Shown here: positions 19,781 through 59,762 of the stretch, in pieces
Layout: every line of letters starts with the position of its first letter
How positions within the stretch are numbered: the first letter of the stretch is position 1
NCBI GenBank assembly: GCA_021735655.1
Contig: JAIPGM010000002.1
Location: 192,001-256,000 of the forward strand
DNA length: 64,000 bases
Reading direction: 5' to 3'
Source of the DNA: Candidatus Omnitrophota bacterium
GTDB taxonomy: Bacteria > Omnitrophota > Gorgyraeia > Duberdicusellales > 4484-171
Translations under genes and position numbers: made by a program
The notes under the pieces: generated by a model
Seen by the model: the letters and a program-made list of their open reading frames with translations, nothing else
What the model was told of the DNA's origin: nothing
Database searches by the model: none

Positions 19781-21828
19781 GGAATTCTACGTATATTTTC
19801 CTCGGCCTTTCGGGCATTAAGATAATCCCCATACTCATAAAATAAGTCATGAGCTTTTAGGAAATTTTCTTTAGCTTTTTGGTTTTCTCCTAAAGCGGAG
19901 TAGGTTCTGCCCATGCCGAAGTATACCTGCGGAGAATCAGGTTTTATTATTAAAGCTTTACGGAAGTGCTGAATTGCTTTTTTGTATTGAACTAAGTTGG
20001 TATAAGTTTCCCCTAGGCTATAATGTATTTGAAAGTTGTCAGGGTCAAGGCGCAATGCCTTCTCAAGGTAGTTTAGGGCTTTTTGTTGTTCTGAGGCGTT
20101 TTTATTTTTTAGGCCTAGTTCATTATGGGCCTTAGACAGGCTAACATATATATCGGGAGATTCCGGAATTGAAGCAAGGACTTTTTCATATTTAGTAATT
20201 GCTCTTTCGTATTGACCTAAAGTTAAATAAGTATTCGCTAATCCGAGTTCCGCTGAGATAGAGGTTGGGTCTAATCTTAGGGCCTTTTCGAAATTATCTA
20301 TTGCCTTTTGAGAATCGCCTAAAAGTCTATAGACATCGCCCAAAGATAAATAGGTTAGAAAATAATCATCTTTTAGTTTTTGTGACCTTAGAAGATACTG
20401 TAATGCTTTTTGATATTGGCCAAGCCTTAGGTACACACTTCCAATGCTGCGGTAAATCTCTGGGTCTTTAGAATTTTTGGCTTCGGCATTTTCAATTGCT
20501 CGTTCAAGATATTGCAATGCTTCTTCAGGAATTCCTAAATCAGCGTAAATCTTGCTTAAAGCCTCGATGATGCCCGGGTAGTCAGGCTGTGCGAGAAAGA
20601 CCTGTTTGAATTCTTCAAGAGCTTCCTTGGGCCTATCAAGAATGCGGTAACATTCACCTAAAGGAAAATGAATTGTTGGGTTTCTAGGATCCAGTTTTAG
20701 CGCATAATTAAAAGCAGCCAGGGCTTGTTTGTGGCGACCCAAATTCATGTAGGTTTCACCGAGCAGCACTTGTGCGTAGATATAACCTGGTGAAATTTCA
20801 AGAGTTTTTCTACAGAAGGCTATTACTTTGTCGAAATTTTTGTTTTCACCTTGAGAATACCGATAGGCTTGACTTAGATAAAAGTTTGCTTTATAGAGTT
20901 TAAATAGTGTTTTATTACTGTCAGCTTCGGGTGGGTACAAGAAAACTTTGTTAACTTCACCAGTTGATGATTTGAATAAAACTGTTTTTGTTTTTTTATT
21001 AAAGTTATCGTTTATTGTAGCGCGTTTGATTTGGATAAAAGAAGAGTAGTTTTCGACTATTTCTCTAGTTATTCTTTCAACTTCTTTATCGGGCGTTGGG
21101 ATATCCGGACTATACTTTTTAATTCGGACATTAAAATCGACTATTATCCGAGAGCTTTGGTAGCGAACATCAATATCGTTAACTTCAAAGTTATCGTTTA
21201 AGCTCGGGGCCAAAAAGGTTCTAGAAATTCTTTCTTGAATTAGCATAGGAATAAACTCAGCTAAGCCAACATTATATTTGCGGAGGTAACGACCACGATC
21301 ATCTTCTAGTATGTTTTTATCGATAAAGGGAGTTTGAAAAGAAATAATTCGTTTTTCAAATTCATAGGCGGATATGTTAGTCGCTAAACCATAAGTGGCT
21401 AAGGTTAGTCTTATCTGATCAGGAATAAATATCAGTTCGTATTGGTTCATCCTGATTAAATTTATTCCTTTTAGACGTTGGATATCGGATTTAACAAAAC
21501 AATAAAATATTGGCGGAGCATCCATATTGAGAAGGGCTCGTTGTATTGATTGAGAAATTTTTCTGACAGTTTCAGACAAGTCTTCATCAACTTTTCCTTC
21601 TTCGTTTACTTTAAATTTGCCAGCTTCATCAAAAAATTCAACCGGGGCATAAACCCAAAGAGTCTCTCCAACCAGCCAAGTGCTTACTTCGATTTTATGC
21701 TCTTCCCTACAGATTTTTTTTATTATTTCGGCAATATCTTTACGTGAATAGGTTGGTGGGACAGAACAGGAAATTAGTAGAAGAGCGCAAAAACTAAGCA
21801 GGAGGTTTTTGAGAGGTATTTTTTGCAT
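19777..21828 (-). CDS. TPR-repeat lipoprotein (N-terminal non-TPR domain plus about 10 TPRs)
   Basis: Lipobox LLISCS; many TPR units in C-terminal half; overlaps the tandem FtsH gene by about 35 nt (co-operonic). Confidence 0.7.
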   Translation of the reverse strand: MQKIPLKNLLLSFCALLLISCSVPPTYSRKDIAEIIKKICREEHKIEVSTWLVGETLWVYAPVEFFDEAGKFKVNEEGKVDEDLSETVRKISQSIQRALLNMDAPPIFYCFVKSDIQRLKGINLIRMNQYELIFIPDQIRLTLATYGLATNISAYEFEKRIISFQTPFIDKNILEDDRGRYLRKYNVGLAEFIPMLIQERISRTFLAPSLNDNFEVNDIDVRYQSSRIIVDFNVRIKKYSPDIPTPDKEVERITREIVENYSSFIQIKRATINDNFNKKTKTVLFKSSTGEVNKVFLYPPEADSNKTLFKLYKANFYLSQAYRYSQGENKNFDKVIAFCRKTLEISPGYIYAQVLLGETYMNLGRHKQALAAFNYALKLDPRNPTIHFPLGECYRILDRPKEALEEFKQVFLAQPDYPGIIEALSKIYADLGIPEEALQYLERAIENAEAKNSKDPEIYRSIGSVYLRLGQYQKALQYLLRSQKLKDDYFLTYLSLGDVYRLLGDSQKAIDNFEKALRLDPTSISAELGLANTYLTLGQYERAITKYEKVLASIPESPDIYVSLSKAHNELGLKNKNASEQQKALNYLEKALRLDPDNFQIHYSLGETYTNLVQYKKAIQHFRKALIIKPDSPQVYFGMGRTYSALGENQKAKENFLKAHDLFYEYGDYLNARKAEENIRRIP

Positions 21829-24800
21829 ACTTTTTAAAAATTAGTTCTAGTTCAGATTGGGTAAGCTCTTCTTTTTTTAACAATTCACTTGTTAAATGTT
21901 CGAATAAATCTTTTTCTTTTTCTAATAAAGCAACGGTTGATTTAAGGCAATCCTGAAGTAATTCTTGAGTTTCCATATCTAACTTTGATTTCATTTCTTC
22001 AGACAGTAGATTGTTTTCGTTTTGTTCAAATAAAAAGTCACCAATGTATCCTGAACGACCCATGCCCCAACGCCAAACCATTGATCTAGCATACCACATC
22101 GAAGTTTTAAAATCCTGAGAAACACCATTGGTAGTGCTGGCAGTAATTTTCTCAGCAGCATATCCACCAAGAAAAATCTTGATAGTGGACAATAGTTCTT
22201 CCTTGGTGCCGGCGGAACGATCTCCTTTGGTAGCATACCAAGCTACACCTAAAGTTTTGTCTCTTGGAATAATAGATAACTTAAAGGGGAAATTTCCTTT
22301 TCCAAAAAAATACTCAGCTAAACAATGTCCGGCTTCATGGTAGGCGGTGGCCTTAAGCTCCTCGGGGGTTAATTTTAATTTCTTTTTTAAGCCTAATTCT
22401 ATTCTTTCTCGAGCTTCATCGAGCTCTTTCATACCCAGAATAGTTTTTTTCATTTTAGCAGTTAGAAGAGTGCCTTCTTTAATTAAATTAGCTATATCAG
22501 CCGGGGAATAACCCGGAGTAATACCGGCAAACATTTCAGGGTCAATCTCATCTTTGTTATACTTAGTTTTAGAAAGATAAAACTGAAATAACTGCTTTCT
22601 TTCGTCAAAGGTTGGTAAAGAAACATGGAGTTTTCGATCAAACCTTCCCGGCCTAAGAACCGCTTTATCCAAGTTACTTTCATCGGTATTGGTAGCGCCA
22701 ATAATAACAATATTATATTCAGCATCCTTTTCCTTTAAACCGTCCATTTCAACTAAAAATTGGTTTAAAGTTTGATTATGTTCTTGAGTACCGCCGAAAC
22801 CTTTGTCCATAGCCCTTTTGGCGCATAAAGCATCAATTTCATCAATAAAAATTATACAGCCACCTTTGGCTAATGCTTGCTCTCTAGCTTCCCTGAACAT
22901 TTGGCGCACTCGGCTTGCGCCCACACCGACAAACATTTCTACGAATTCTGAACCAGCCTTAGCGATAAAAGGGATCCCTGCCTCATTAGCGATAGCAGAG
23001 GCAAGATAAGTTTTTCCGCATCCAGGAGGGCCAAGCATTAACAAACCCTTAATAATTTGTCCACCCATTTGTTTTAGGTTGGCTCGGTCTTTTATTAAGC
23101 TGACAATTTCTTTGGCTTCGTCTTTTGCGCCTTCCATACCAATGATATCATCCCAACCTATAGAATCTTTTTTTGACTTTTTCATTCCTTCCATTATATA
23201 AGTAAGCCTAGTTTTCCCATGTTTTTTGAAGGTTTCTTCTATTTGATCGTAATCTAACTCTTCTTCTTTTAATAAACGGTTAGCAATTTCATCTAAAATT
23301 ACTTTTTCTCGACGTAATATTTCATTGACTTCATCCAAACATTTATTAATGATATCTTCTTTGTCTCTTTCAGAAATTTGCGAAGGGAAGCCATGTTCTT
23401 GAGTTATACCTCCTGGGCCCGAAGTCCCCATGCCCCACTGATCTACCATTTTCATCGCTAGATTGTTTGCTTGTTTAAGATCTTTCCCTACTCCGGAAGA
23501 TACCGAACCAAAGCGAATTTTTTCAGCAGCATAACCACCAAGAAAACTCTTTATTTGACCTAAAAGATATTCTTTATCCGGGATGTGGCGTTCTTCTTTG
23601 TCCCTTGTCCAGGTAACCCCTCCGGCTGAACGTCTAGGAATAATACTAGCCTTAAAAACATCTTGAGTTGGCACTAAAAAGTAAGTAGCCAGTGTGTGTC
23701 CGGCTTCATGGTAGGCGGCAATTTTTTTATCTTGGAGAGATAACACATATTCAGCTTTTATCCCGATATCGATTCTTTCTTTTGCGTCATGGATGTCGGA
23801 CAAATCAACTTGATTTTTTTTCTTACGGGTAGCAATTAGAGAAGATTCACGAACAATGTTTGCTATGTCAGCTGGGCTATTGCCAACTGTAAAACGAGCT
23901 AACTTAGCAAAATCAATTTTTTCCTTATTGTAGGAAATCTTGGTGAAATAGTATTGTAAAAGATCTTCACGTTCTTTTAACCCGGGGAGCCCAACATAAA
24001 CTTTGCGGTCGAATCGTCCGGGACGCATTAGGGCGCTATCAAGTTCACTCTCGGGAACATTTGTCGCCGCGATTATTACGATATTGTCTTTGGCAGTATC
24101 TAACCCGTCCAATTCAGTTAAAAGCTGATTAACGGTAGCATTATAATCTTGACCGGCACGGCCGCCTCCGGAACTTTCTATTCTCGGTCGGGCGAAAGTA
24201 TCAATTTCATCGATAAAAATTATACAACCACCATCTATTTCAGCGGAGATTCTGGCTTCCTTAAATAGGCTTTTTACTCGATTGGCGCCAACCCCGACAA
24301 ACATACCTTGGAATTCACTACCGGCAACGTGAAGAAAGGGGAGTTTCGTTTCAGTAGCGATAGCTTTAGCCAGATAAGTCTTTCCGCATCCAGGAGGGCC
24401 AATCATTAAAACACCTTTAATAATTTTTCCGCCAACCCGGTCTAAATTAGTATGGTCATTTATGAGCTGAATTACTTCCCAGACTTCCTTCTTTATGTTT
24501 TCCATCCCAATAACGTCAGACCATCTGACATTCACTGATTGCGGTTTTACTTTTTTTGATTTTAATTTATCAAGACCTCCCCCCCAAAGAAAGTATACAA
24601 ATATACTTGTCGTTATTGCACCGGATACAGTACCGACAATTAGCATAAAAAAGATTTGCAGAGGAATACCGGCAAGCATTGATTTACGAAAAAAAGAATC
24701 TAACTGGAAGAAGGTTCGAAGGCCAACAGTGGTTAAAGCAATTATGCTTAGAATTAGGAGAATAGCTACACTTATTATCGTAACTTTTATCCAGTGTAGT

Positions 24801-24841
24801 TTTATATACTTTGTTAATCGTTGATTTGAGCTATTTGCCAT
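21794..24841 (-). CDS. internally duplicated FtsH-like membrane protease: TM-TM-AAA+-M41-AAA+-M41 (start moved to MANSS ATG with GGGAGG RBS)
   Basis: Two copies each of Walker A GPPGCGKT, Walker B IIFIDEID, pore loop MFVGVG, SRH ATN..RPGRFDR and zinc site HEAGH. Confidence 0.85.
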
Positions 24842-24977
24842 GGATTCGCCTCCCGAGATTAAGAATACCATATATTTTTATTATTGTCTACTTCTTAGAT
24901 GTTGCCAACACCTATTTTAATAAGGTTTCCCTGCTCTGTAAGCGATTACATCTATATTCATATATATAAAAAATAGC

Positions 24978-25005
24978 TTGCTAAAACAACCGAATAAGCT
25001 ATAAT
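24978..25005 (+). promoter_or_regulatory. sigma70-like promoter TTGCTA-16-TATAAT, 7 nt upstream of hflK ATG (leaderless)
   Basis: -35 at 24978-24983, -10 at 25000-25005, ATG 25013, no SD. Confidence 0.45.
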
Positions 25006-25012
25006 CTATTTT

Positions 25013-26026
25013 ATGGAATTTCAAAGTCGACAGCCCGATGAAATCTTTCAAAATTTAAAACAAAAATTTAGTGGCCAGAGGCCGAAAGGTTTTTGGTTTC
25101 CTTTACTAATTGGTATTGCTATCTTGTCTATATTTTTAAACGGGGCCGGACTTTCTCCCAATCCTTTTTATACTATTCAGCCAGACGAAGTTGGTGTTGT
25201 TTTACGTTTTGGAAAATTCATCAAGGCCACTAATCCTGGTCTTCATTTTAAGTATCCTTTAATTGAAAGAGTTATCCCAGTTAAGGTTGAGAAAGTTTAC
25301 ACTGAAGAGTTTGGCTTTAGAACTCAATCCCCAGGGGTAAGAACTGTCTATAGCCCGAAGTCGTTTGATGATGAGTCGTTAATGCTTACCGGAGATTTAA
25401 ATGTATTAGATTTAGAATGGATTGTTCAATATAAAATAAGTGACCCTTTCGGTGCTTTGTTTAATATACGAAAATTGGTTAAGGCTATACGTGATGTTTC
25501 TGAGTCAGTAGTTCGAAGATTAGTCGGCGATCATTCTTTTAACGAAGTTCTTACTACCGAACGAATAGAGATAAATAATCAAATTCAAGATGAGATGCAA
25601 GAAATTCTTGATTCTTACAACTGTGGAATTCAAATCGTTAAGGTAAAATTACAAGATGTTAACCCGCCTGACCCGGTTAAACCAGCCTTTAATGAAGTAA
25701 ACCAGGCAAAGCAGGAGCGAGAGAAGTTGAAGAACCAGGCTTGGGAAGTTTATAACCAAAAAATACCACAAGCCAAGGGCGAAGCTCTTAAGTTATTTCA
25801 AGAAGCTGAGGGTTACGCTACCGAGAAGGTTAATTGGGCAAAGGGTGATGCGGAGCGTTTCTTGCTGCTTTATAAAGAATACACCAAAGCTAAAGATGTC
25901 ACCTTGAAACGACTGTACTTAGAAAACATGAGTCAAATTCTTAAAAAAGCTGGTAAAAAATACATTCTTGATCCTAAAGAAAAGGGGATTCTTCCCTTAC
26001 TAAAGCTAGAGAGTCAAAATGAATAA
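25013..26026 (+). CDS. hflK: SPFH/band-7 protein HflK (FtsH modulator)
   Basis: N-terminal TM plus SPFH domain plus HflK C-terminal coiled coil. Confidence 0.8.
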   Translation: MEFQSRQPDEIFQNLKQKFSGQRPKGFWFPLLIGIAILSIFLNGAGLSPNPFYTIQPDEVGVVLRFGKFIKATNPGLHFKYPLIERVIPVKVEKVYTEEFGFRTQSPGVRTVYSPKSFDDESLMLTGDLNVLDLEWIVQYKISDPFGALFNIRKLVKAIRDVSESVVRRLVGDHSFNEVLTTERIEINNQIQDEMQEILDSYNCGIQIVKVKLQDVNPPDPVKPAFNEVNQAKQEREKLKNQAWEVYNQKIPQAKGEALKLFQEAEGYATEKVNWAKGDAERFLLLYKEYTKAKDVTLKRLYLENMSQILKKAGKKYILDPKEKGILPLLKLESQNE

Positions 26027-36028: not shown

Positions 36029-36072
36029 TAACAGTTTTGTTGCACAGACTATTTTGATATAATGTAATTTGG

Positions 36073-36705
36073 ATGAAAAATTATTGGAATCTAGCCATAA
36101 CTTTCTCTTTGATTTTTCATAGTGCCTTAATTATACGCTTACCTCAATTGACTTTTTTTAGCAAAAAAAGAAACGCTGTTAAAACGGAAATTAAAAAAGA
36201 AGTAACCATGGTACCTGAAAATGTTAAAGAGAAGGTAAAGGTCAGGACTGATTCGATAGCCCTAATCGAACCTGCACCTTATACTGAAAATATTATGGAT
36301 ACGCTTATAAAAAATGGCGGTATTACCACAATGAGTAAAACTGATGTTTTTGAAAAAAACATTAAAGAAATCGTTCTTTCTGAAATACCGCCACACAATA
36401 AGGAACTAAAAAAAAATCCAGCCTATATGAACTATTATCGTCTTATCCGAGAAAAAATACGTAGTAATACTTATCGTTACTATCGCTCAAGTAATACTGG
36501 TAAGGTATTGTTAAGCTTCATCGTGCTTAAAGACGGTGACTTAGGTGAGTTTTTTCTAGACGATGAATCAGTGGCTGATGATGGTTTGCGCCAGATAACT
36601 CTAGAAAGCATTAAAGATGCAGCTCCTTTTCCGCCTTTCCCTGATGAGTTAAGTAATTATACCCAGCTTAGCTTTCGTATCCCAATTTACTTTAAAAATA
36701 ATTAA
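36073..36705 (+). CDS. TonB C-terminal-domain-like protein
   Basis: N-terminal TM, C-terminal TonB_C-like block (GKVLLSFIVLKDGDL...FPPFPDEL). Confidence 0.5.
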   Translation: MKNYWNLAITFSLIFHSALIIRLPQLTFFSKKRNAVKTEIKKEVTMVPENVKEKVKVRTDSIALIEPAPYTENIMDTLIKNGGITTMSKTDVFEKNIKEIVLSEIPPHNKELKKNPAYMNYYRLIREKIRSNTYRYYRSSNTGKVLLSFIVLKDGDLGEFFLDDESVADDGLRQITLESIKDAAPFPPFPDELSNYTQLSFRIPIYFKNN

Positions 36706-36853
36706 TCTGGGTTACCTGCGAAGTGGCCCTGCCGTCTTGCTCAGGGGCTTCTCGCCGTAACGAAGTGCGATTGAGGGTGCAAAAGGAAAGAATTAACCCA
36801 AGAGTAGCCGAGCAACTTTATGGAAATGCATAATTCGACTAAGCCCTCATTAC

Positions 36854-36881
36854 TTGACATTCGAGGTTAGGATTATATAAT
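36854..36881 (+). promoter_or_regulatory. consensus sigma70 promoter TTGACA-16-TATAAT, 6 nt upstream of ATG (leaderless)
   Basis: -35 at 36854-36859, -10 at 36876-36881, ATG 36888, no SD. Confidence 0.55.
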
Positions 36882-36887
36882 ATAGCG

Positions 36888-37691
36888 ATGATAAGGAAGC
36901 CGGCGGTAAGCGGGCAATTTTACCCTAGTGATAAAAGAGATCTTGAGGCTACAATCGATGGATTTAAGCCTAAAAGAAACAATAAAATTTCTGCTAAGGG
37001 TATAATTCTTCCTCATGCTGGTTACGCTTATTCAGGACGGGTAGCAGTTGAAACAATCAGTAGAGTTTTAGCTAAAAAAAAATTGATTTTACTTGGACCC
37101 AATCATACTGGGTTGGGTGAAAAGTTTAGTCTTTGGGGTAAAGGAAAGTGGGAGACCCCTTTGGCCTCAATTAATATTGACGAAGAGTTAAGCAAGCGTA
37201 TTTTAGGAACCGGAAGCTTAATTGCTGAAGATAAGCTTGCTCATCAGCACGAACATTCTTTAGAGGTTCAGTTACCGATTCTATATCGTTTTTTTGGACA
37301 ATTTAGTTTTGTTCCGATCGCTTGTCAACAAGCGAGCCTTGCAAATTATCGTAAGGTTGCAGCTCAGATTTGCCAAGCGATAAAAGCTCAAGAGGATGAA
37401 GTTCTTTTCATTGCTTCGACTGACCTAACTCATTATGAACCTGATATAACAGCAAGGGTCAAGGATAGGACAGTTATCGAAGCAATTATTAACTTGGACG
37501 AAGAAGAGCTACTAAACAAAGTTAAGGCAAAAGGCATAACTATGTGCGGTGTGGCTCCGGTAGCGATTCTTCTTTGTTGTTTAAAAGCGGTTGGCGCCAA
37601 AAAAGCAGAAGTTTGTCTTTATCAGACTAGCGGCGACGCAGGTGGAGATAAAACTTCAGTTGTCGGTTATGTAGGGATGATTATTAAATAA
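36888..37691 (+). CDS. MEMO1-family protein (AmmeMemoRadiSam system protein B)
   Basis: 267 aa, N-terminal RKPAVSGQFYP, His-rich motifs typical of MEMO1/LigB-like fold. Confidence 0.75.
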   Translation: MIRKPAVSGQFYPSDKRDLEATIDGFKPKRNNKISAKGIILPHAGYAYSGRVAVETISRVLAKKKLILLGPNHTGLGEKFSLWGKGKWETPLASINIDEELSKRILGTGSLIAEDKLAHQHEHSLEVQLPILYRFFGQFSFVPIACQQASLANYRKVAAQICQAIKAQEDEVLFIASTDLTHYEPDITARVKDRTVIEAIINLDEEELLNKVKAKGITMCGVAPVAILLCCLKAVGAKKAEVCLYQTSGDAGGDKTSVVGYVGMIIK

Positions 37692-49439: not shown

Positions 49440-49902
49440 ACTTTGGGCTCCTTGGAGAATAAATTATGTACAAGACAAAAAGGCAAAGGGTTGCGTTTTT
49501 TGTAAAATCCTAAAAGCAAAAAATGACACCCAAGACAATGTTCTTTTACGGTCAAAACATTGTTTTGCCGTTTTAAATAAATTTCCTTATAATAACGGAC
49601 ACACATTAATAGTAACTAATCGTCACATTAAATCACTAGAACAGTTAAAAGATCAAGAGTTATTAAACATTAACAAAACTTTAATTTCGGTAAAATCAAG
49701 ACTTAAAAAAATTCTCAAGCCCGATGGGTTTAATATCGGAATTAACATTGAAAAGTCGGCCGGGGCAGGAATAGTGGGCCATATTCATATTCATCTTGTG
49801 CCTCGCTGGACTGGTGATACAAATTTTATGCCAGTGACCGCAAGTACAAAAATAATCTCCCAAAGCCTCAAAGAATTAAGTCGACAATTTAAAAATAAAT
49901 AG
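49432..49902 (+). CDS. HIT-family nucleotide hydrolase
   Basis: Histidine triad HIHIHLVPR. Confidence 0.8.
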   Translation: MSELWAPWRINYVQDKKAKGCVFCKILKAKNDTQDNVLLRSKHCFAVLNKFPYNNGHTLIVTNRHIKSLEQLKDQELLNINKTLISVKSRLKKILKPDGFNIGINIEKSAGAGIVGHIHIHLVPRWTGDTNFMPVTASTKIISQSLKELSRQFKNK

Positions 49903-49908
49903 TACAAT
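49881..49908 (+). promoter_or_regulatory. sigma70-like promoter TCGACA-16-TACAAT, 8 nt upstream of ATG (leaderless)
   Basis: -35 at 49881-49886, -10 at 49903-49908, ATG 49917, no SD. Confidence 0.4.
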
Positions 49909-49916
49909 CAAACACT

Positions 49917-50957
49917 ATGGTGCACTACACAACTATATTTTCTTCCTTCCATACTCTCTATCGTCTAACTACTACGCTTGATGATTTGCCAAGCTTTGCT
50001 ATGGGTGTATGTCGCCTTTACCGCAACGCTTTTAATGCTGATAAGGTAGTAATAATTTGTAAAAGTGTTTCTAGCCAGACAACTCTTAAAGTCTGCTGCG
50101 AAAATAAAAATTCCTATATAAAAAAGGGAGGCAATTCTATTCTTACCAGAATAGAAAAAGAACTTCTTAAACAAGAAAAAGAAATTCTTTCAACCAACCG
50201 TTTCATTTACCCTTTTATATTTACCCATATTCTAGGAGGAATTTATGTGAAGCGTGATTCAAAAACCAACAAGTTTGATGAGACTGAAAAAAAATGGTTT
50301 TTGTCGCTTTGCGAAGAAGCAAGCATGAGTCTAAAAATATTTGATTTGTATAGCGAGCAAAAAAAGATAGTACTTAGCTACATTAAATCTTTATCACAAT
50401 TCTTAAACCAATATGTACCAACTTCTTATTTGCACACTAAAATTATTTCTCGTTTGATTAAAGCTTTAGGTAAAGCGATGAAGCTGTCGGAAGTTGAAAT
50501 TAAATCTCTGGAACACGCTTCTTTATTGCACGATATAGGAAAAATGCAAGTTCCTTCACAACTATTAAAAAAACAAAAACCACTAACAGACAAAGAGTTT
50601 AAACTTATCGCAAAGCACCCTCGAAAAGGTGCTAATTTATTTAAAAATTTAGAAATTCTGAAGCCGGCCATACCGATAATCTTACACCATCATGAACGTT
50701 ATGATGGAAAAGGATACCCTTCAAAGTTAAAAAAAGAACAAATCCCCTTAGCTTCAAGAATATTATCAGTGTTAGATACCTTCGACGCCATGTATTTTGG
50801 ACGACCTTATCGACGTAAACGTCGCCTAAAAGAAATTGAGAAAGAATTTAAGGAGCAGCGTGGAAAGCAATTTGACCCTAAGGTAGTTGATGTATTTCTT
50901 GCGATTTTGAAAAGAAAAAGTATACAAAAATACTTCAAATCTTCCCCAAAAAAGTAA
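49917..50957 (+). CDS. HD-GYP domain c-di-GMP phosphodiesterase with N-terminal GAF-like region
   Basis: HDIGK and HHHERYDGKGYP motifs. Confidence 0.8.
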   Translation: MVHYTTIFSSFHTLYRLTTTLDDLPSFAMGVCRLYRNAFNADKVVIICKSVSSQTTLKVCCENKNSYIKKGGNSILTRIEKELLKQEKEILSTNRFIYPFIFTHILGGIYVKRDSKTNKFDETEKKWFLSLCEEASMSLKIFDLYSEQKKIVLSYIKSLSQFLNQYVPTSYLHTKIISRLIKALGKAMKLSEVEIKSLEHASLLHDIGKMQVPSQLLKKQKPLTDKEFKLIAKHPRKGANLFKNLEILKPAIPIILHHHERYDGKGYPSKLKKEQIPLASRILSVLDTFDAMYFGRPYRRKRRLKEIEKEFKEQRGKQFDPKVVDVFLAILKRKSIQKYFKSSPKK

Positions 50958-50970
50958 CCACAAGGAATTC

Positions 50971-50999
50971 TTGATTTTTACCCCTATTTATCTTATAAT
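50971..50999 (+). promoter_or_regulatory. sigma70-like promoter TTGATT-17-TATAAT, 6 nt upstream of ATG (leaderless)
   Basis: -35 at 50971-50976, -10 at 50994-50999, ATG 51006, no SD. Confidence 0.45.
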
Positions 51000-51005
51000 A
51001 ATCAT

Positions 51006-51536
51006 ATGAGAGGAAAGCAGCTTTATCTTTTTGGTCTCAAAAGTGATAGTTCAAATACTCCGCCACAGCAAAAAATTAAGCTACCTTTAGATATATTAAC
51101 TATAGCTAGTGTGGTTTTTGTTCTTTCATTGATTATTTCATTTTCTCTGGGAGTGGAGAAAGGCAAAAAAATTGCTTCTAGTAAAATCGCAATAGAACCC
51201 CAGGAAAGATTACCCCGTTTAGACGTTGCTGTCGATAAGCAATCCGTCGAACCAGATAGTTCGAAACAGGATTCTTTAGTTGAAGAGAAAATCGTTCCAA
51301 ACGAAATAGTAAAAAATAAGCAAAAATACAATATTCAAGTAGCTAGTTTTTATAAAGAAAATACAGCTCGCAAAGAAGCAGAACAATTAAAAGAAAATGG
51401 TTATCCGACCTCAGTATCCCGAAAAGGTAAATACGTTGTTATCTATGTCGGGGATTTTGACGATGAGGGGGAAGCCAAATCTAATTTTGAACTTTTGCAA
51501 AAAAGATACAAAGACTGCATATTGCGACAACTATAA
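51006..51536 (+). CDS. SPOR-domain protein (N-terminal TM)
   Basis: C-terminal SPOR block YNIQVASFYKENTARKEAEQLKENGYPTSV...YVVIYVGDF. Confidence 0.7.
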   Translation: MRGKQLYLFGLKSDSSNTPPQQKIKLPLDILTIASVVFVLSLIISFSLGVEKGKKIASSKIAIEPQERLPRLDVAVDKQSVEPDSSKQDSLVEEKIVPNEIVKNKQKYNIQVASFYKENTARKEAEQLKENGYPTSVSRKGKYVVIYVGDFDDEGEAKSNFELLQKRYKDCILRQL

Positions 51537-51546
51537 GGAGGATTAA

Positions 51547-51792
51547 ATGGGACTACATCCATCATTGAAACGATCAGATGTAAAGGGTAATCGTTCAGTA
51601 ATGAAACGAACTGAACGGATAAAGTGGCTTATCGGAAAAGGCAAATGGAACGAAGGCGATCCAGTTTTAGGTTTACCTAAAATAAAAATTATAAAATTAA
51701 AAGCCATAAAGAAAGAAAAGCAAAAACCTGAAGAAGAAGGGCAACCTACCGAAGGTGCAAAAAAACCAGTTGAGAAAAAATCAAAAGATTAA
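51547..51792 (+). CDS. small highly basic hypothetical protein
   Basis: 81 aa, Lys/Arg-rich, strong AAGGAGG RBS. Confidence 0.45.
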   Translation: MGLHPSLKRSDVKGNRSVMKRTERIKWLIGKGKWNEGDPVLGLPKIKIIKLKAIKKEKQKPEEEGQPTEGAKKPVEKKSKD

Positions 51793-51798
51793 CCAAGA

Positions 51799-52560
51799 AT
51801 GAAAATATTCTATATTCTTCTGATAGCAATATTTTTTTCTATGACTTTGGTTTCAGCCTTTGATCTTTATGAAGTAGCTAATGATAAGGCACAAATTCGG
51901 GTCGATTCTACAAGTTTGTCAGGCTCTTTGGGTTTCTTCAACCAAGGAGACTCAGTCGAAGTAGTTGGAGAGAAGTTTGATTGGTACCGCGTTGTTTTGC
52001 CAAAAGAGACTACTTGTTATGTTTATAGCAAGCTCATTGAAGTGCTAGACGGAGGAATGGTGAGAATTAGCGCAACAAATGTTAATTTACGCTATCAACC
52101 TTCGCTTGAAGCCCCAATTATTGGTAAAGCATTAAAAGATGAAGTATTTTCACTCCTTGGAGATAATGGGGAGTGGCTTAAAATTAATAATAATTCAAAG
52201 GCTAGAGGTTGGGTACATAAAAAATTCCTAAAAAAACAGGATTCGTCTCAAAATTTAGCCTTACTTGAAGAAAGAATTGTAACTTCCGATACGGCTACGA
52301 TCTACAATACGATTACCATTCTAAGCCAGCTAGGAAAAAATAAACCGGAGTTGCTACCCCGGTTTTTAGAAAAGGCCAAAAGATTATCACTCAAACCAGC
52401 AAGCGCCTACCTAGACATCTTACAAAACATTCTTGAGCCCAAAGATCAAAAGAAGGCTTACTTTTATCAAGCTCAAAACAACGCCCTTAGTGATCAAGAT
52501 ATTCAAAGGGCCTTAAGTTTGTTTCAGACAATGATCGAAACCAAAAATATTAGCCAATAG
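51799..52560 (+). CDS. secreted protein with two bacterial SH3 domains
   Basis: Signal peptide; two SH3b-like blocks (..GDSVEVVGEKFDWYRV.., ..DEVFSLLGDNGEWLKI..). Confidence 0.55.
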   Translation: MKIFYILLIAIFFSMTLVSAFDLYEVANDKAQIRVDSTSLSGSLGFFNQGDSVEVVGEKFDWYRVVLPKETTCYVYSKLIEVLDGGMVRISATNVNLRYQPSLEAPIIGKALKDEVFSLLGDNGEWLKINNNSKARGWVHKKFLKKQDSSQNLALLEERIVTSDTATIYNTITILSQLGKNKPELLPRFLEKAKRLSLKPASAYLDILQNILEPKDQKKAYFYQAQNNALSDQDIQRALSLFQTMIETKNISQ

Positions 52561-52566
52561 ACACTA

Positions 52567-53178
52567 ATGGCAATTACTTACTTACTTATCGTATTTTTTA
52601 TCCTTTTGTTTTCAATAACTATGCACGAATTTGCGCATGGTTGGATTGCTTATAAGCTCGGCGATCCGACCCCTAAAGATCGTGGTCGTTTAACTTTAAA
52701 CCCTTTTGCTCATATTGATTTAATCGGAACAATAGTTGTGCCTTTTCTTATTGTTTTTATCAGTCGAGGATTGCTTCCGCCGATTGGCCGAGCCAAACCA
52801 ATACCGATTAACCCTTCACATTTTAAAAACCCTAAGCAAGATATGATGTTAGTTGGAGCAGCAGGGCCACTAACCAATATCGCCATTGCCATAGTTTTTA
52901 TTCTATTAGCAAAAGTAAGCAGCCCACTGATCTCGGAAATACTTGCTTTTGGTGCGGTCTTAAATCTTGTCTTGGCAATTTTTAATCTTATTCCGATACC
53001 ACCGCTTGACGGATCACGAATAGTTGCCGGATTGTTGCCATCGCGACAATACCAAGCCTATCGTAAAATCGAAAGATTTGGATTTTTTATATTGATACCG
53101 TTTATTTTTTTAATTATTGCTACCGGGTTATTTGGAAAAATTATTAATTTTTTACAAAAGATAGTTTACTCTTTATGA
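52567..53178 (+). CDS. small site-2 (M50) family metalloprotease
   Basis: HEFAHGWIA (HExxH) in TM1, LDG motif; 203 aa. Confidence 0.75.
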   Translation: MAITYLLIVFFILLFSITMHEFAHGWIAYKLGDPTPKDRGRLTLNPFAHIDLIGTIVVPFLIVFISRGLLPPIGRAKPIPINPSHFKNPKQDMMLVGAAGPLTNIAIAIVFILLAKVSSPLISEILAFGAVLNLVLAIFNLIPIPPLDGSRIVAGLLPSRQYQAYRKIERFGFFILIPFIFLIIATGLFGKIINFLQKIVYSL

Positions 53179-54284
53179 GCACTACTTTAACTGCGACGAC
53201 TATAACCGTTGGTTTAAAAAGTAATCCTTACCGGATATATATCGGGAATAACCTTTTAAAAAAAATATCAACACACATTGCTAAACTTAAGTTAGGTAAT
53301 TTTGGAATAGTGATCACCTCGCCAAAGATATACTCAATTTACCAAAAACAAATCATAAAAAACTTCGGACCCAATAAATACAAAATTATTAAAGTTGCTG
53401 ACGGCGAAGCTGCTAAATCTAAAAAGTGGCTTTTTAGAGTTCTTGATGAAATAGCTCGTTGTGATAATTACAAACTTAGTCCATTCATAATTTGCTTGGG
53501 TGGAGGCACAGTTGGGGATTTAGGCGGATTTGTTGCCGCAATTTATAAACGCGGAATACCCTATATACAAATTCCAACAACTCTTTTGGCTCAGATTGAT
53601 TCTAGTATCGGCGGTAAGACTGCGATAGACATGCCACATGCAAAAAATATCATCGGATCTTTCTATCAGCCTAAGGCAGTATTCATTGATCCTTGCTTTT
53701 TAGCCACATTACCGCTGGCCTATTTTAAAGAAGGGTTGTCTGAAATAGTTAAATATGGGGTTATTAAAGATGCTGAATTTTTTCGTTTTCTGAAAGTAAA
53801 TCATTCTAAAATCTTAAAACGTGACTCAGTTTCTATTTTTAAAATCGTCTCAGTTTGTGCGAGAATAAAAGCCCAAATAGTAGAGAAGGACGAGAAAGAA
53901 ACAAAAGGTTTAAGAACCGTGCTTAACTTTGGCCATACCTTTGCCCATGCCTTAGAAAGCGCTTTAAAATATCAAAAAATTTCACATGGCGAAGCTGTAT
54001 CTCTAGGGATGATTTACGCTGGAAAATTATCTTTACTGCTTGGAAAATGCAATAAAACCTCTTTTTTCGAACTTCTAGATATATTACGGCTTTTTGGCTT
54101 GCCGATAGGTATAAAATTTGATCCAGCAAGGATTTATCGGTCTTTAGTCCATGATAAGAAGTTTATTTCAGGAAAAATTCGCATGGTCCTTTTAAAGAAA
54201 ATAGGCAAAGTAGAAGTCGTTGATTCGATCAGCCCTTTAGACATAAAAAGAGCGTTTAAAGTTTTCTATCCCGCCTCACATTGA
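53175..54284 (+). CDS. aroB: 3-dehydroquinate synthase
   Basis: GGGTVGDLGGFVAA, IPTTLLAQIDSSIGGKTAI motifs. Confidence 0.9.
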   Translation: MSTTLTATTITVGLKSNPYRIYIGNNLLKKISTHIAKLKLGNFGIVITSPKIYSIYQKQIIKNFGPNKYKIIKVADGEAAKSKKWLFRVLDEIARCDNYKLSPFIICLGGGTVGDLGGFVAAIYKRGIPYIQIPTTLLAQIDSSIGGKTAIDMPHAKNIIGSFYQPKAVFIDPCFLATLPLAYFKEGLSEIVKYGVIKDAEFFRFLKVNHSKILKRDSVSIFKIVSVCARIKAQIVEKDEKETKGLRTVLNFGHTFAHALESALKYQKISHGEAVSLGMIYAGKLSLLLGKCNKTSFFELLDILRLFGLPIGIKFDPARIYRSLVHDKKFISGKIRMVLLKKIGKVEVVDSISPLDIKRAFKVFYPASH

Positions 54285-54335
54285 CAAAGCCCTATAAATA
54301 TGGTATATTTATACCGAATATAGGTTTATTAAGCG

Positions 54336-54701
54336 TTGCGGCTAATAAAATCAATAGTTGGAAGAGCTAATATGGATGAAAGACGGCAATACCCCAGAGT
54401 AAACATTTCTCTCCCAGTCGAATGTAAAATGTTACCCTCGCGGGACTATTTCTATACAGTAAGTAAGGATTTAAGTCAGGTAGGCTTAAAGATTGTAAGT
54501 AACGAATTTATGCCTAAGAATGAGCTTTTAAAATTAAGTTTGAATCTGATCAACAAGATGCTTGATGTTAAAGCTAGGGTAGTTTGGTGCAGCCAGGAAC
54601 GTGCTTCGGAGAGATACTCGGCTGGCGTTGAGTTTGTGGAAATTGAAGATCACTCGCGCAATGAACTTACCGCATTTTTAGCTACAACCGAAAACTCATA
54701 A
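54336..54701 (+). CDS. PilZ-domain c-di-GMP receptor
   Basis: RQYPRVN...(D)LSQVGLKI = RxxxR and D/NxSxxG PilZ motifs. Confidence 0.7.
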   Translation: MRLIKSIVGRANMDERRQYPRVNISLPVECKMLPSRDYFYTVSKDLSQVGLKIVSNEFMPKNELLKLSLNLINKMLDVKARVVWCSQERASERYSAGVEFVEIEDHSRNELTAFLATTENS

Positions 54702-54702
54702 A

Positions 54703-54846
54703 ATGGCAAAAGCTGAAGAAAAAAGAAAAAATTGCCTAGGTTGCAATAAGTCACTGGTGCGATCCCAGTGGTACTATCGCAATGGCGGCTATTTTTGCAA
54801 CAAGTCTTGTTTCAAAACCAATCTTAAAAAGCAAGAATCCAAATAA
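54703..54846 (+). CDS. 47-aa zinc-ribbon protein (CxxC-x17-CxxxC; not in supplied ORF track)
   Basis: Translation MAKAEEKRKNCLGCNKSLVRSQWYYRNGGYFCNKSCFKTNLKKQESK; fills the gap exactly between the two PilZ genes. Confidence 0.45.
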   Translation: MAKAEEKRKNCLGCNKSLVRSQWYYRNGGYFCNKSCFKTNLKKQESK

Positions 54847-54852
54847 ACCTTA

Positions 54853-55203
54853 ATGAAAGAGCGACGAAAATCAACGCGCATCAATAAGGTTCTTTCGGTG
54901 AAGCTATCGGATTCTGAATTTGATATTTTAACCGAAACTAAAAATATTAGCGCAACCGGTGCCTATTGTCCAGTTTCAAAACCACTGGACCTGATGACTA
55001 AACTACGCTTGGTGCTTCTAATCCCAATTCAAAAAAATCGCACGAAAACGATAAAGAAAATAAGTTGCGAAGGTATCGTTGTGCGACTTGAAACGACTAA
55101 AGACAAAGGAAAATACCCTTATCGTGCTGGAATATTCTTTAACGAAATTAATGATCAGGATAAGAAGTCGCTCCTCTCTTATATACAGTCCTCATTAAAA
55201 TAA
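54853..55203 (+). CDS. PilZ-domain protein
   Basis: RRKSTRINK...NISATGAY PilZ motifs. Confidence 0.7.
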   Translation: MKERRKSTRINKVLSVKLSDSEFDILTETKNISATGAYCPVSKPLDLMTKLRLVLLIPIQKNRTKTIKKISCEGIVVRLETTKDKGKYPYRAGIFFNEINDQDKKSLLSYIQSSLK

Positions 55204-55222
55204 AACTTTTTTAGCCCAATCG

Positions 55223-55753
55223 ATGCTCAAACTTCAATTTCCTAAACCGGTAAAGTTTATCTGTGGTTTTATCTATTCTACCGAAAAATCTTATCAGCAG
55301 GTTAAAAGTATCTTGGAAAGTAAATTCGGAAAGGTTGATTTCGAAACTCAACCAATAGACTTTACTTTTACTGACTACTACGAAGAAGAAATGGGTAAAA
55401 ACCTCAAGCGACGGTTTATTTCATTTAGAAAGTTACAAAACCCTAAACGATTTACCACAATTAAGCTTTTTTGTTTAAAACTGGAAAAAAAGTTTGCATT
55501 AAATAATAAACGGCAAATAAACATTGATCCTGGATACCTTAATGAAGCAAAATTAGTTTTAACTACTACCAAGGATTTTTCACACCGTATCTATCTTGAC
55601 AAGGGAATCTATGCTGAGATAACTTTGCTGTTTAAAGATGGTGCTTTCTGTAATTTGGAAACTACCTTTCCCGACTATCGAACTAAAACCTACAAAGGAA
55701 TCTTTCACCTAATTCGTGATACTTACCGTCAAAATCTAAAAAATGAATATTGA
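55223..55753 (+). CDS. hypothetical protein, translationally coupled to the AmmeMemoRadiSam radical SAM gene
   Basis: 176 aa, no recognised motifs; 11-nt overlap with next gene. Confidence 0.35.
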   Translation: MLKLQFPKPVKFICGFIYSTEKSYQQVKSILESKFGKVDFETQPIDFTFTDYYEEEMGKNLKRRFISFRKLQNPKRFTTIKLFCLKLEKKFALNNKRQINIDPGYLNEAKLVLTTTKDFSHRIYLDKGIYAEITLLFKDGAFCNLETTFPDYRTKTYKGIFHLIRDTYRQNLKNEY

Positions 55754-56696
55754 AGGTAAAATCAATAAGATTGAGCCATTGTTAGAGGCCCTCAACCAGC
55801 GTCTTAAAACCTGCGATATTTGCCCCAGAAACTGCTATACAGACCGCTTAGCCGGCCAAAAGGGGTATTGCGGAGGAGGAAAGGATATGGCCCTTTTTAC
55901 GGCCTTTTTGCATTGTGGAGAAGAACCAGCAATAAGTGGTGAAAACGGCTCAGGCACAGTGTTCTTTTCTGGCTGCAATCTTAAGTGTATTTACTGTCAA
56001 AACTATGAATTTTCGCAAATTAAGAAGGGTAAATTAACCACAATTGATAAGCTGACCGACATTATGCTCGGTTTAGAAAAAGATGGAGCCCATAATATCA
56101 ACTTGGTTACTCCGACCCATTTTCTTCCTCAGATACTAAAATCGCTTTATCTAGCCCTAAAAAGAGGCCTTAAAATACCAATAGTTTATAATACTTCAGG
56201 ATACGAGAAAAAAGAGGTCATAAGTCAATTAGAAGGAGTTGTTGATATATATCTGACTGATTTACGTTATCTAAATAGTGAGTTAGCGAAAAAGTACTCT
56301 AATGCCGAAGATTATCCAATGGTGGCTACTGAGAGTATTAAAGAAATGTACCGGCAATACCCACAAGCGATCTGGGACGAAGATATATTAAAACAAGGTA
56401 CAATTGTCCGCCACCTAGTCCTTCCTGGATATTTAAGCGAATCAAAAAAGGTCTTAAACTGGATTAAGGACAATACTCCTAAAGTTTTACCCAGTGTTAT
56501 GTTTCAATATCAACCTTACTTTAAGGCAAATACTTACCCAGAGATAAATCGACCAATCAACAAAAACGAATATAAAGAAATTAAACAGTTTGTCGAGGAA
56601 CTAGGCCTAGAAGGAGGCTGGATTCAAGAATTTGGACCACAGAGCGATTTGGCCGGAGTACATTTTAAGGCCGATCAAAAAGATAGCTTCATCTAG
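55743..56696 (+). CDS. AmmeMemoRadiSam system radical SAM enzyme (PFL-activase-like)
   Basis: CDICPRNC...GYCG N-terminal Cys motif plus CNLKCIYCQN radical SAM cluster. Confidence 0.8.
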   Translation: MNIEGKINKIEPLLEALNQRLKTCDICPRNCYTDRLAGQKGYCGGGKDMALFTAFLHCGEEPAISGENGSGTVFFSGCNLKCIYCQNYEFSQIKKGKLTTIDKLTDIMLGLEKDGAHNINLVTPTHFLPQILKSLYLALKRGLKIPIVYNTSGYEKKEVISQLEGVVDIYLTDLRYLNSELAKKYSNAEDYPMVATESIKEMYRQYPQAIWDEDILKQGTIVRHLVLPGYLSESKKVLNWIKDNTPKVLPSVMFQYQPYFKANTYPEINRPINKNEYKEIKQFVEELGLEGGWIQEFGPQSDLAGVHFKADQKDSFI

Positions 56697-56967
56697 TCTT
56701 CTCAGTAAAGAAACCTACCTTTTTTTCCTTTTCCGGACCTTTAATAATAATATGGTGAATATTAGCAAGAGGGATAATAGCCAAATCATCACCTTTAGTT
56801 TGAGCATCAATAATCATTAAAGGCTGAAAGACGCTAACCGTCGGTTCAATAATTTTATAAATAGAATCAGTTTCGTATTGTTGACCGTTGTTAAGATAGA
56901 TAACGGCCGTGTTTTTCCTGCTTTTCTTTAAGAATTCCTCAGTAGTCTTTATTGCAATAATATCCAT
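56689..56967 (-). CDS. hypothetical protein with weak Sm/Hfq-like pattern
   Basis: AAGGAGG RBS; VIYLNNGQQYETDSIYKI and IIPLANIHHII loosely resemble Hfq Sm1/Sm2. Confidence 0.3.
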   Translation of the reverse strand: MDIIAIKTTEEFLKKSRKNTAVIYLNNGQQYETDSIYKIIEPTVSVFQPLMIIDAQTKGDDLAIIPLANIHHIIIKGPEKEKKVGFFTEKTR

Positions 56968-57080
56968 AAGGAGCCTCCTTTTAGGTATTGTAACCGCAAG
57001 TAGCTAATGTGTCAAATTGAGCAATTCGATGGAGGAGAAACGGAGAAACTTTCTGTGTTTTTTAGTGTTTTTTTGTATAC

Positions 57081-57108
57081 TTGAAAATATTGTCAATTCT
57101 GGTATAAT
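57081..57108 (+). promoter_or_regulatory. near-consensus sigma70 promoter TTGAAA-16-TATAAT for the RHH gene
   Basis: -35 at 57081-57086, -10 at 57103-57108; AAGGAG RBS before ATG 57148. Confidence 0.5.
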
Positions 57109-57147
57109 AAATACAAGTTAAATGGCTGCTAACAATAAGGAGTAACG

Positions 57148-57363
57148 ATGGCTATAAAAAAGACTAAAAAAGGGCGCCCCAAAAAGGCTATTAAATACAC
57201 TAAAACAATAAATGTTCGCCTAACCAGCGATCAATGGGTACAAGTCCTTAATTGGGCCCAAAGAGCCAATCTGGAGCCTTCGGTATATATCCGCAAGATT
57301 CTTCTAGACTTTCTTAATATCGAACATGAAATAAGTGTCGGTAAAAGTTCGGCTAAGAAATAG
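57148..57363 (+). CDS. ribbon-helix-helix (CopG/MobC-like) DNA-binding protein, orphan
   Basis: Basic N-tail then INVRLTSDQW..L...A...NL..S.YIRKIL pattern typical of RHH. Confidence 0.45.
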   Translation: MAIKKTKKGRPKKAIKYTKTINVRLTSDQWVQVLNWAQRANLEPSVYIRKILLDFLNIEHEISVGKSSAKK

Positions 57364-57712
57364 AACCCCGGATAAGAACTCGCAACTAAAACATAAGGAA
57401 AGAGTGCCGGTTTAGAGACTAAAAAGCCCAGGAAAACCGCATACCTTCTACTTCCGATAATATATCTTATGTTAACTTTTATAAATGAGTGATTTGGCCT
57501 CTTTGTTTAATGTCACTAATGACTTTTGGTGTTTTGACAATAACCTGTGAATTTAACCAATGGTCTTTACTTTCTATTGGGTATTACATAATAACCTTAC
57601 TTTAAAGTCTAGACTAAAAGAGCTCTTAAAGTTGATTGGAAAGGGTGTTTTGGGGCGATTTTAAGTTAACTTAACTGCCTTGGAAGCAGATATAGAAGCC
57701 TTCAGTTTGGAT

Positions 57713-58318
57713 TTACCAACAACTGTAAGTACTACAAAAATCCCACTGCATTACCCAAACTGCATCAGTGCCTCCCGGATGCTGAAAGTACCCAGTAGTT
57801 ACATTACCATCATCAATCACAGCATCAATTCTTTTTGCGGAAGCAAGCGGTAAAGAGCAATTATTTGGGCCGTCGGGATAGCAATAATCTTCAAACTCTA
57901 CACAAAGTTCAATATCTCCGGCAGGATCAGTCGGCTGCCTGCGGCGATTGGTATTAGTCGTAAATGTATAGATTCCTCCCCAGGGATGTACTCCACTTTT
58001 CTGATCTAAATAGGGCCCGTCCCAACCCGGCCAATCACCAGTTAAGTCCGGTGGTGTTGTACTCGGCCAGGCTCTAGTAGGGTTTCTTATTAGGTGTGAC
58101 TCTATAACCCGACCTTCACTATCGCCTCCATGAGGCCACTTGCCTGTGTCAGCATAAAGAGATCCACAAGCAGTCTTCATGGCTTTAAAATCAGCTATTG
58201 CCTTAGCAACTTTAGCCTTCTCAATAGCCTTAAAAGCATTAGGTGCAATGATTGCGGCAAGGATAGCTATGATAGCAATAACCACTATAAGCTCGATAAG
58301 AGTAAAACTTTTTTTCAT
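57713..58318 (-). CDS. type IV pilin / pseudopilin (prepilin-type N-terminal methylation domain)
   Basis: FTLIELIVVIAIIAILAAI prepilin motif, C-terminal Cys pair. Confidence 0.8.
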   Translation of the reverse strand: MKKSFTLIELIVVIAIIAILAAIIAPNAFKAIEKAKVAKAIADFKAMKTACGSLYADTGKWPHGGDSEGRVIESHLIRNPTRAWPSTTPPDLTGDWPGWDGPYLDQKSGVHPWGGIYTFTTNTNRRRQPTDPAGDIELCVEFEDYCYPDGPNNCSLPLASAKRIDAVIDDGNVTTGYFQHPGGTDAVWVMQWDFCSTYSCW

Positions 58319-58340
58319 GTCGCCTTCCTCATCAATACGT

Positions 58341-59744: not shown

Positions 59745-59752
59745 ACTTAAAT

Positions 59753-59762
59753 ATTATACCAA
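59753..59762 (-). promoter_or_regulatory. extended -10 (TGGTATAAT) 8 nt upstream of the HD-GYP start codon (leaderless)
   Basis: Minus-strand TTGGTATAAT ATTTAAGT ATG; no SD. Confidence 0.4.

Follow-up and report, generated by a model that had tools for sequence, protein, structure and literature searches.

In a stretch of 64,000 nucleotides (nt) from a metagenome-assembled genome (MAG) of Candidatus Omnitrophota (contig JAIPGM010000002.1, positions 192,001 to 256,000, G+C content 37%; hereafter the window), seven genes are preceded by a sigma70-type promoter whose -10 hexamer ends only 6-10 nt before the start codon. These genes are mreB, hflK, a Memo/AmmeMemoRadiSam-B gene (hereafter Memo), an HD-GYP gene, a SPOR-domain gene, a HAMP/HD-GYP sensor gene and a TonB_C-like gene. 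Their promoters are quite probably functional and would yield leaderless or near-leaderless mRNAs whose translation does not depend on a Shine-Dalgarno (SD) sequence. A sequence-only reading of the window had listed the first six as a recurrent leaderless architecture, a proposal that null tests and the conservation of promoters and distances across lineages support for the set as a whole.

Promoters abutting start codons in the window

The gap, i.e. the number of nt between the end of the -10 hexamer and the ATG, ranges from 6 to 10 nt. On the forward strand, the mreB pair (1945-1986) consists of TTGACA (1945-1950), a 17 nt spacer and TGtTATTAT (hexamer at 1968-1973), separated by 10 nt from the ATG at 1984. 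That of hflK (24978-25015) displays TTGCTA (24978-24983), a 16 nt spacer, TATAAT (25000-25005) and a gap of 7 nt before the ATG at 25013, whereas the Memo pair (36854-36890), the sole 12/12 promoter match found between 30 and 45 kb, combines TTGACA (36854-36859), a 16 nt spacer, TATAAT (36876-36881) and a gap of 6 nt before the ATG at 36888. The HD-GYP (HD_5) gene (49881-49919) carries TCGACA (49881-49886), 16 nt, TACAAT (49903-49908) and a gap of 8 nt before the ATG at 49917, and the SPOR-domain gene (50971-51008) carries TTGATT (50971-50976), 17 nt, TATAAT (50994-50999) and a gap of 6 nt before the ATG at 51006. On the reverse strand, the sensor gene (59742-59781) has an extended -10 element, TGGTATAAT (59761-59753), 8 nt before its ATG (59744-59742), and a weak -35 element, CTATCA (59781-59776, 3/6 matches), with a 17 nt spacer. 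The seventh gene, which the earlier reading did not include, encodes a TonB_C-like protein of 210 amino acids (aa) and displays TGaTATAAT (36055-36075, forward strand, hexamer at 36058-36063) 9 nt before its ATG at 36073. Pfam matches confirm the identities of the six genes listed previously, and the promoter and ATG coordinates given for them stand, apart from the sensor range (59753-59762), which was one base too long.

The start codon is ATG at all seven loci and none of them carries an SD core of at least 4 nt located 3-12 nt before it, as had been claimed for the six. Further downstream, the promoter-abutted candidates offer no in-frame start with a credible SD. Six of the seven genes head transcription units, being either divergent or separated from the upstream gene by 44-182 nt; the exception is the HD-GYP gene, with 14 nt.

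Whether such an arrangement exceeds chance was evaluated on an annotation-independent sample, the 5'-most ATGs of all open reading frames (ORFs) of at least 100 codons (n=61 in the window). A site was considered strong if it showed at least 10/12 hexamer matches with a 16-18 nt spacer, or TGn and at least 5/6 matches in the -10 hexamer, and the tested gaps were 5-10 nt. Nine of the 61 ORF-opening ATGs display a strong site at these gaps, whereas 2000 dinucleotide-preserving shuffles of the 45 nt upstream of each ATG gave a mean of 0.23 (standard deviation 0.48) and never more than three; strong sites at gaps of 11-60 nt amount to two in the whole window. The -10 hexamer taken alone gives a weaker signal (10 observed versus 3.8 after shuffling, with 8 of the 2000 shuffles reaching 10). 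The sequence-only reading had itself pointed out that its proposal would fall if -10-like hexamers were as frequent upstream of random ATGs. Such equality is found neither in the shuffle comparison nor when gene starts (9/50 with the hexamer) are compared with the other ATGs of the window (63/1549, i.e. 4.1%; Fisher p=2.6e-4), and only one of 56 intergenic non-start ATGs is preceded by it. Furthermore, among the 20 permutations of its letters, none is as frequent at that position as TATAAT itself (five occurrences versus at most three).

The six pairs first listed are thus far beyond chance. An explanation by chance, according to which -10-like hexamers are common in A/T-rich upstream sequences and six of them were picked by eye, can draw on the frequency of promoter-like matches at the 9/12 level, which is that of the shuffled sequences (44 versus 37.8), and on two sites that look accidental: the one at 18335, in the rnf operon, and a TATACT before 46728, neither of which is conserved. 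For the set, this explanation is nevertheless effectively refuted by the nine sites observed where 0.23 were expected, by their near-absence before intergenic non-start ATGs and by conservation across lineages at five loci.

The motif is found at 7 of 23 operon heads and 2 of 43 internal genes (p=0.007). This bears out the earlier statement that leaderless starts occur at operon heads, except for the HD-GYP gene. The same distribution, together with a conserved -35 element at 16-18 nt or a TGn, led to the rejection of a Bacteroidetes-type ('group B') non-SD motif as the nature of the signal.

Conservation of the promoters and of their distance to the ATG

Syntenic loci of relatives, hereafter designated by L and a number, were obtained via homologues of Memo, 3-dehydroquinate synthase and HflK, and a series of mreB loci by scanning metagenomes with MreB. 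At the hflK, SPOR, Memo and 36073 (TonB_C-like) genes, the compared lineages share about 65-88% protein identity and the gaps are kept at 6-9 nt. Upstream of hflK, TTGC(T/C)A and TA(T/G/C)AAT are kept in four lineages (the window, L173, L174 and L175; 80-88% protein identity) with gaps of 7, 7, 8 and 7 nt, whereas the spacer is only 43% identical and the discriminator diverges too. Upstream of the SPOR gene, TTGATT and TATAAT are identical in the window, L090, L091 and L092, with gaps of 6, 7, 7 and 7 nt; the last value is that of a second ATG, aligned with the first methionine of the other proteins, the ATG called in L092 lying 1 nt from the box. As for the 36073 gene, TGnTATAAT is fully conserved in the window, L082, L085 and L088 at a gap of 8-9 nt, whereas the sequence further upstream is 39% identical. 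Overall, the -10 element of these three genes is 86-100% identical across four lineages, versus 39-69% for the upstream sequence and spacer.

The N-termini of the hflK, SPOR, HD-GYP and 36073 products are conserved from residue 1 in their orthologues. Most Memo homologues are 267 aa long, with a nearly invariant M1 and an invariant R3, and the ATG at 36888 would therefore be the true Memo start. From these alignments, the promoter-proximal ATGs encode the true N-termini of Memo, hflK, SPOR and the TonB_C-like gene, and the case for leaderless mRNAs appears strong for these four genes.

The Memo arrangement, tgtTATAAT-N6-ATG, is retained in three lineages, the window, L082 and L088 (69-70% identity). 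In L082 and L088, a mere 19 nt separate Memo from the upstream gene, and the last 32 nt of this gene together with the spacer are 90-97% identical between the two loci, versus 77-83% for the rest of the gene. The 182-nt spacer found before Memo in the window (36706-36887), which is the source of the perfect TTGACA -35 element, is specific to this genome: it has no match among the other fetched loci and belongs to no Rfam family. In L085, where a pilin-like gene on the opposite strand is inserted in the spacer, Memo has a leader of about 30 nt with a GGAG SD, downstream of a TTGACA-17-TATTCT promoter. Outside Omnitrophota, in two Memo loci with a G+C content of 62-67% (L015:1992 and L019:1723), the ATG likewise follows a -10-like box at 5-6 nt, and both have a TGTCAAT -35-like element in common.

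The mreB series is the most extensive. It comprises 34 related loci (28 distinct sequences, MreB 71-91% identical), and in every one of them a perfect TTGACA is followed, after a spacer of 16-18 nt, by TGnTANNNT. Seven distinct sequences, among which the discriminator takes at least four unrelated forms, have their first in-frame ATG at a gap of exactly 7 nt from the -10 hexamer. This gap is 10 nt in three others, one of them that of the window, and 13-77 nt in the remainder; none is shorter than 7 nt. A distribution that is cut off and piled up at 7 nt is what would be expected if the transcription start site (TSS) were located there and the ATG had repeatedly moved to the 5' end. All three sequences with a gap of 10 nt have an A at the eighth nt after the hexamer, and the TSS of the window mreB should be A1981, giving a predicted 3-nt leader, ACU. 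Orthologues with longer leaders often gain an SD, as does Memo in L085; the long-leader mreB genes are either led by an SD (AAGGAG in L125 and L126) or end their leader with runs of A, as in L094 and L096-L099, whose leaders are 30-32 nt long.

The window mreB has an alternative second ATG at 1996, which was picked by the automatic gene caller and with which the MreB N-termini of most relatives align. However, L093, the closest relative, has GTA at codon 5, where the window has this second methionine, so that its mreB can start only at the promoter-proximal ATG, with a gap of 10 nt. From these alignments, the start codon of the window mreB appears ambiguous between 1984 and 1996, while the support for the interpretation looks good for the mreB promoter, albeit with a predicted leader of 3 nt.

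The HD-GYP promoter is retained in the window and L092 (gaps of 8 and 7 nt); L090 and L091, in which the gene begins 4 nt after a HIT gene, have only a degenerate version. In the window, the HD-GYP gene begins 14 nt after the HIT gene and its promoter overlaps the 3' end and stop codon of the latter; this promoter is therefore internal rather than at an operon head, and its conservation may partly reflect the coding constraint on the HIT gene. Comparison of these loci gives the leaderless reading of HD-GYP moderate strength. No orthologue of the sensor gene was found by tblastn in all 177 fetched loci. The region 49917-62790, to which both genes belong, is rich in cyclic di-GMP (c-di-GMP) genes, which encode two PilZ and three HD-GYP proteins, one of the latter being a fusion with PAS-GGDEF.

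L176, which overlaps the window directly, and L177, which matches it via the gene 62941-63648 and its neighbours, add 18.5 kb outside the window, drawn from the same assembly sample (SRR12088349). These sequences contain one more case, TGgTATAAT-N7-ATG, before a gene encoding a GGDEF response regulator (L177:1864). Three of the eight promoter-abutted genes (HD-GYP 49917, sensor 59744 and this response regulator) thus encode c-di-GMP enzymes, which may be a coincidence given the local gene content. A ruvA-like gene in L176 (L176:2248) was rejected as a leaderless candidate, its gap being merely 4 nt.

Strong sites at gaps of 5-10 nt were also counted per ORF start in other sets of loci, the expected number outside the window being the mean per-position count at gaps of 15-60 nt multiplied by six. 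Their number is 23/525 in the clade (6.3 expected), where the gap histogram peaks at 6-7 nt, 11/138 in a further group, L131-L137 (1.0 expected), 8/364 in distant Omnitrophota (2.3 expected), 15/1285 in other phyla (7.3 expected) and 4/601 in L139-L172, which served as a negative-control set (2.9 expected). The group L131-L137, which is metagenomic (MreB 60-62% identical), has an even cleaner leaderless signature, several orthologous genes being preceded by TTGACA-17-TATAAT 5-6 nt before the ATG. Taken alone, the -10 hexamer shows no enrichment in its gap profile across distant Omnitrophota loci; it is a noisy measure, and a criterion combining it with a -35 element or TGn is needed.

Predicted initiation and competing explanations

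RNA polymerase would start transcription at the A of the start codon, or 1-3 nt before it, if the TSS lies 7-8 nt after the -10 hexamer, as established promoter geometry suggests. With gaps of 6-7 nt, the Memo, SPOR and hflK mRNAs would have no leader at all and would be strictly leaderless. Those of HD-GYP, the sensor gene, mreB and 36073 (gaps of 8-10 nt) are predicted to carry leaders of about 1-3 nt, i.e. about 2 nt for the sensor gene and 1-2 nt for 36073. By analogy with leaderless mRNAs of studied bacteria (PMC8459731), the ribosome probably binds the 5'-terminal AUG directly with the initiator tRNA, without any SD interaction; such initiation would be of the 70S/IF2-stimulated type.

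Several observations weigh against this interpretation. The gaps of the HD-GYP, sensor, 36073 and mreB genes (8, 8, 9 and 10 nt) are at or beyond the edge of the published range of 6-8 nt. Since each added 5' nt roughly halves leaderless translation in the Caulobacter and Escherichia coli models (PMC8459731), these four loci would possibly be poorly translated as leaderless mRNAs; they might be inefficient or might use another SD-independent route. Predicted 5' structure does not set the candidates apart from 50 other genes, being no lower in the former (Mann-Whitney p about 0.9), and a hairpin of -9.6 kcal/mol is predicted at +12 to +28 of the Memo mRNA (within its first 30 nt), its AUG remaining unpaired. 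Omnitrophota whose Memo proteins are at most 58% identical do not keep the Memo arrangement. A genome scan with the single Memo protein as query returned no relative; with a Memo alignment as query, no relative above 58% identity was returned, and those retrieved are uninformative about the window promoter because their Memo genes are mostly SD-led. Two of the nine strong window sites, those of an FtsH-like gene and of 18335, are false positives. Lastly, an SD-independent mechanism acting on leadered mRNAs exists in this genome and could serve the seven genes from upstream transcripts.

This last point depends on how genes of the window are led in general. An SD core of at least 4 nt at 3-12 nt is present before 21 of the 66 window genes (at least 5 nt before 16) and absent before the 45 others, and for this reason the absence of an SD is not diagnostic of leaderlessness here. 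The genes fall into three classes: about one third are SD-led, seven of 66 are promoter-abutted, and the majority lack an SD but are leadered or coupled. The earlier view that canonical and leaderless initiation are mixed thus holds as far as both classes exist, but it omitted the largest class. The promoter-abutted arrangement concerns about 10% of the genes and roughly a quarter of the operon heads in this stretch; the rates given for gene classes and operon heads rest on about 82 kb and not on the whole genome. Many tightly packed genes of the window have neither an SD nor a nearby promoter.

Among the SD-less leadered genes, the first PilZ gene (PilZ-1) has a conserved promoter, TTGACA-17-TGgTATATT, about 60 nt upstream. 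Its listed TTG start at 54336 is probably wrong; judging from alignments, an SD-less ATG (MDERR...), situated about 60 nt past the promoter, serves as the start in its relatives. The PilZ-1 promoter (54281-54340) is overlapped by a perfect inverted repeat with 9-nt arms (54293-54301/54305-54313; 12-nt arms in L090), which could be an operator or a hairpin.

These genes lend some weight to an explanation in which the promoters are real but only a minor source of mRNA, most translation coming from longer transcripts while the A/T-rich box keeps the start unstructured or binds bS1. It is favoured by the 45 genes without SD core and by SD-less leadered genes with conserved distant promoters (PilZ-1, and mreB in L094 and L096-L099). 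Read-through is also likely at HD-GYP and at Memo in L082 and L088, whose 14-19 nt spacers make them the loci to which translation from upstream transcripts especially applies. Against it, the conserved element is not mere A/T richness but TATAAT, which beats its own permutations, accompanied by TGn or by a -35 element at 16-18 nt; the -35 elements of SPOR (TTGATT) and hflK (TTGCYA) are conserved at the correct spacing, the motif is rare among internal operon genes (2/43) and the mreB ATG comes right up to the predicted TSS but no further. Overall, translation mainly from longer transcripts appears unlikely, although less so than the alternative that follows.

This other alternative is that the promoter-adjacent ATGs are not real starts and that translation begins further downstream on a short leadered mRNA. 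This does seem to occur at the FtsH-like gene (24841-24908, reverse strand), where TTGGCA-17-AATAAT (24908-24880) ends 8 nt before the ATG at 24871. This ATG was rejected as a leaderless start: a GGGAGG-N7-ATG is found 30 nt downstream, at 24841, the SD and this start are conserved in L173 and L174, and the upstream ATG, in frame in the window, is out of frame in L173. From these comparisons, the FtsH-like promoter is real but drives a leadered mRNA whose real start is most likely the ATG at 24841. The gene caller's choice of 1996 for mreB and the alignment of most MreB N-termini with it point the same way. However, Memo, hflK, SPOR, HD-GYP and 36073 have no downstream in-frame SD-led start and their N-termini are conserved from residue 1, and the L093 mreB lacks the second methionine. 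A general downstream start is thus quite improbable, and leaderless or near-leaderless initiation remains the preferred interpretation of the seven genes.

The other candidates were set aside on simpler grounds. The 18335 site precedes a RseC-like ATG (18371) inside the rnf operon, and the LysM/M23 gene at 46728, whose TATACT box is not conserved, has a conserved -10 element, TAAGAT, about 60 nt upstream in the window.

Leaders are apparently short throughout this compact genome. The SD-led genes at 27955 and 56967 (reverse strand) have a -10 element 19-21 nt before their ATG, so that their leaders would begin almost at the SD. The adjacent region 56968-57712 (745 nt) is devoid of any ORF of at least 80 aa; near 57148, it contains a 71-aa ORF preceded by TTGAAA-16-TGnTATAAT (57081-57108) with a gap of 39 nt, and 71-aa ORFs are called correspondingly in L090 and L092. 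Rfam and tRNA scans of the window returned two tRNAs only. The FtsH-like gene itself (21794-24871, reverse strand) encodes a protein of about 1015-1025 aa in which the AAA and Peptidase_M41 modules are each present twice, in tandem; this duplicated form also occurs in L173 (1020 aa), whereas L174 (570 aa) and L175 (515 aa) have a single-module form.

Relation to known leaderless systems and implications

A Pribnow box located 6-8 nt from the gene start is a signature of leaderless transcription in bacteria (PMC6028130; PMC3160421). In the GeneMarkS-2 classification, the corresponding 'group C' takes in most Actinobacteria (90%) and Deinococcus-Thermus (97%), and leaderless transcription is predicted for 25-50% of operons (PMC6028130). 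The window resembles members of this group such as Mycobacterium tuberculosis and Deinococcus deserti: the Pribnow box lies 6-8 nt from the start, no SD is present, and such genes are mostly operon heads that coexist with SD-led genes, at a proportion of about 25% of operon heads, compared with the 25-50% predicted for the group (PMC6028130; PMC4007540). However, the genome is A/T-rich (37% G+C) and displays full TTGACA-17-TATAAT or TGnTATAAT promoters instead of the degenerate TANNNT of high-GC genomes, Omnitrophota lie outside the phyla reported so far, and most of the remaining genes also lack an SD.

Zheng et al. (2011) surveyed 953 bacterial genomes, described in 207 of them 'TA-led' genes, whose start is preceded at about 10 bp by a TA-like signal, and reported that the initiation mode of orthologues changes with phylogenetic distance (PMC3160421). 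The interpretation proposed here is of the same sequence-based kind, and the box is of the TAtaaT type found in medium- and low-GC genomes such as that of Aquifex (PMC3160421). In contrast with this survey, which predates Omnitrophota genomes, individual genes can here be traced through the switch: for Memo, leaderless mRNAs are predicted in three lineages whereas L085 has an SD-led form, and mreB displays gaps of 7, 10 and 13-77 nt and SD-led forms.

Like leaderless mRNAs of Caulobacter crescentus and E. coli, the candidates use only AUG and the best three loci have a predicted leader of zero or near-zero length (PMC8459731). Weakly structured 5' ends, which promote leaderless translation in Caulobacter (PMC8459731), are not evident here, and four loci have predicted leaders of 1-3 nt, which are inhibitory in those species. 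The FtsH-like transcript, predicted to begin at or near the ATG 24871, is the only one reminiscent of the E. coli mRNAs that carry a 5'-terminal uAUG and are SD-led (PMC4965119).

A literature search retrieved no paper connecting leaderless mRNAs with Omnitrophota. Leaderless initiation is already known and apparently not yet reported for this phylum; no new mechanism is revealed. What the data would add is the extension of predicted leaderless initiation to an uncultured phylum whose E. coli-like promoter consensus can be read directly from the sequence. In practice, start-codon calling in Omnitrophota MAGs should change, with about 10% of genes promoter-abutted and two thirds devoid of SD; automatic callers indeed disagree on starts, as seen for mreB (1984 or 1996), PilZ-1 (TTG) and the FtsH-like gene.

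On a wider scale, we lean, with modest confidence, towards the view that this family has repeatedly switched the essential genes mreB and Memo between leaderless, SD-less leadered and SD-led forms under an invariant promoter, and that about one quarter of the transcription units are leaderless in a low-GC, low-SD genome. The orthologue series, above all the 28 mreB promoters with ATGs stacked at the predicted TSS, provide a comparative handle on the gain and loss of leaders. If this view is true, the clade would constitute a natural series in which to study the selection that favours or opposes leaders.

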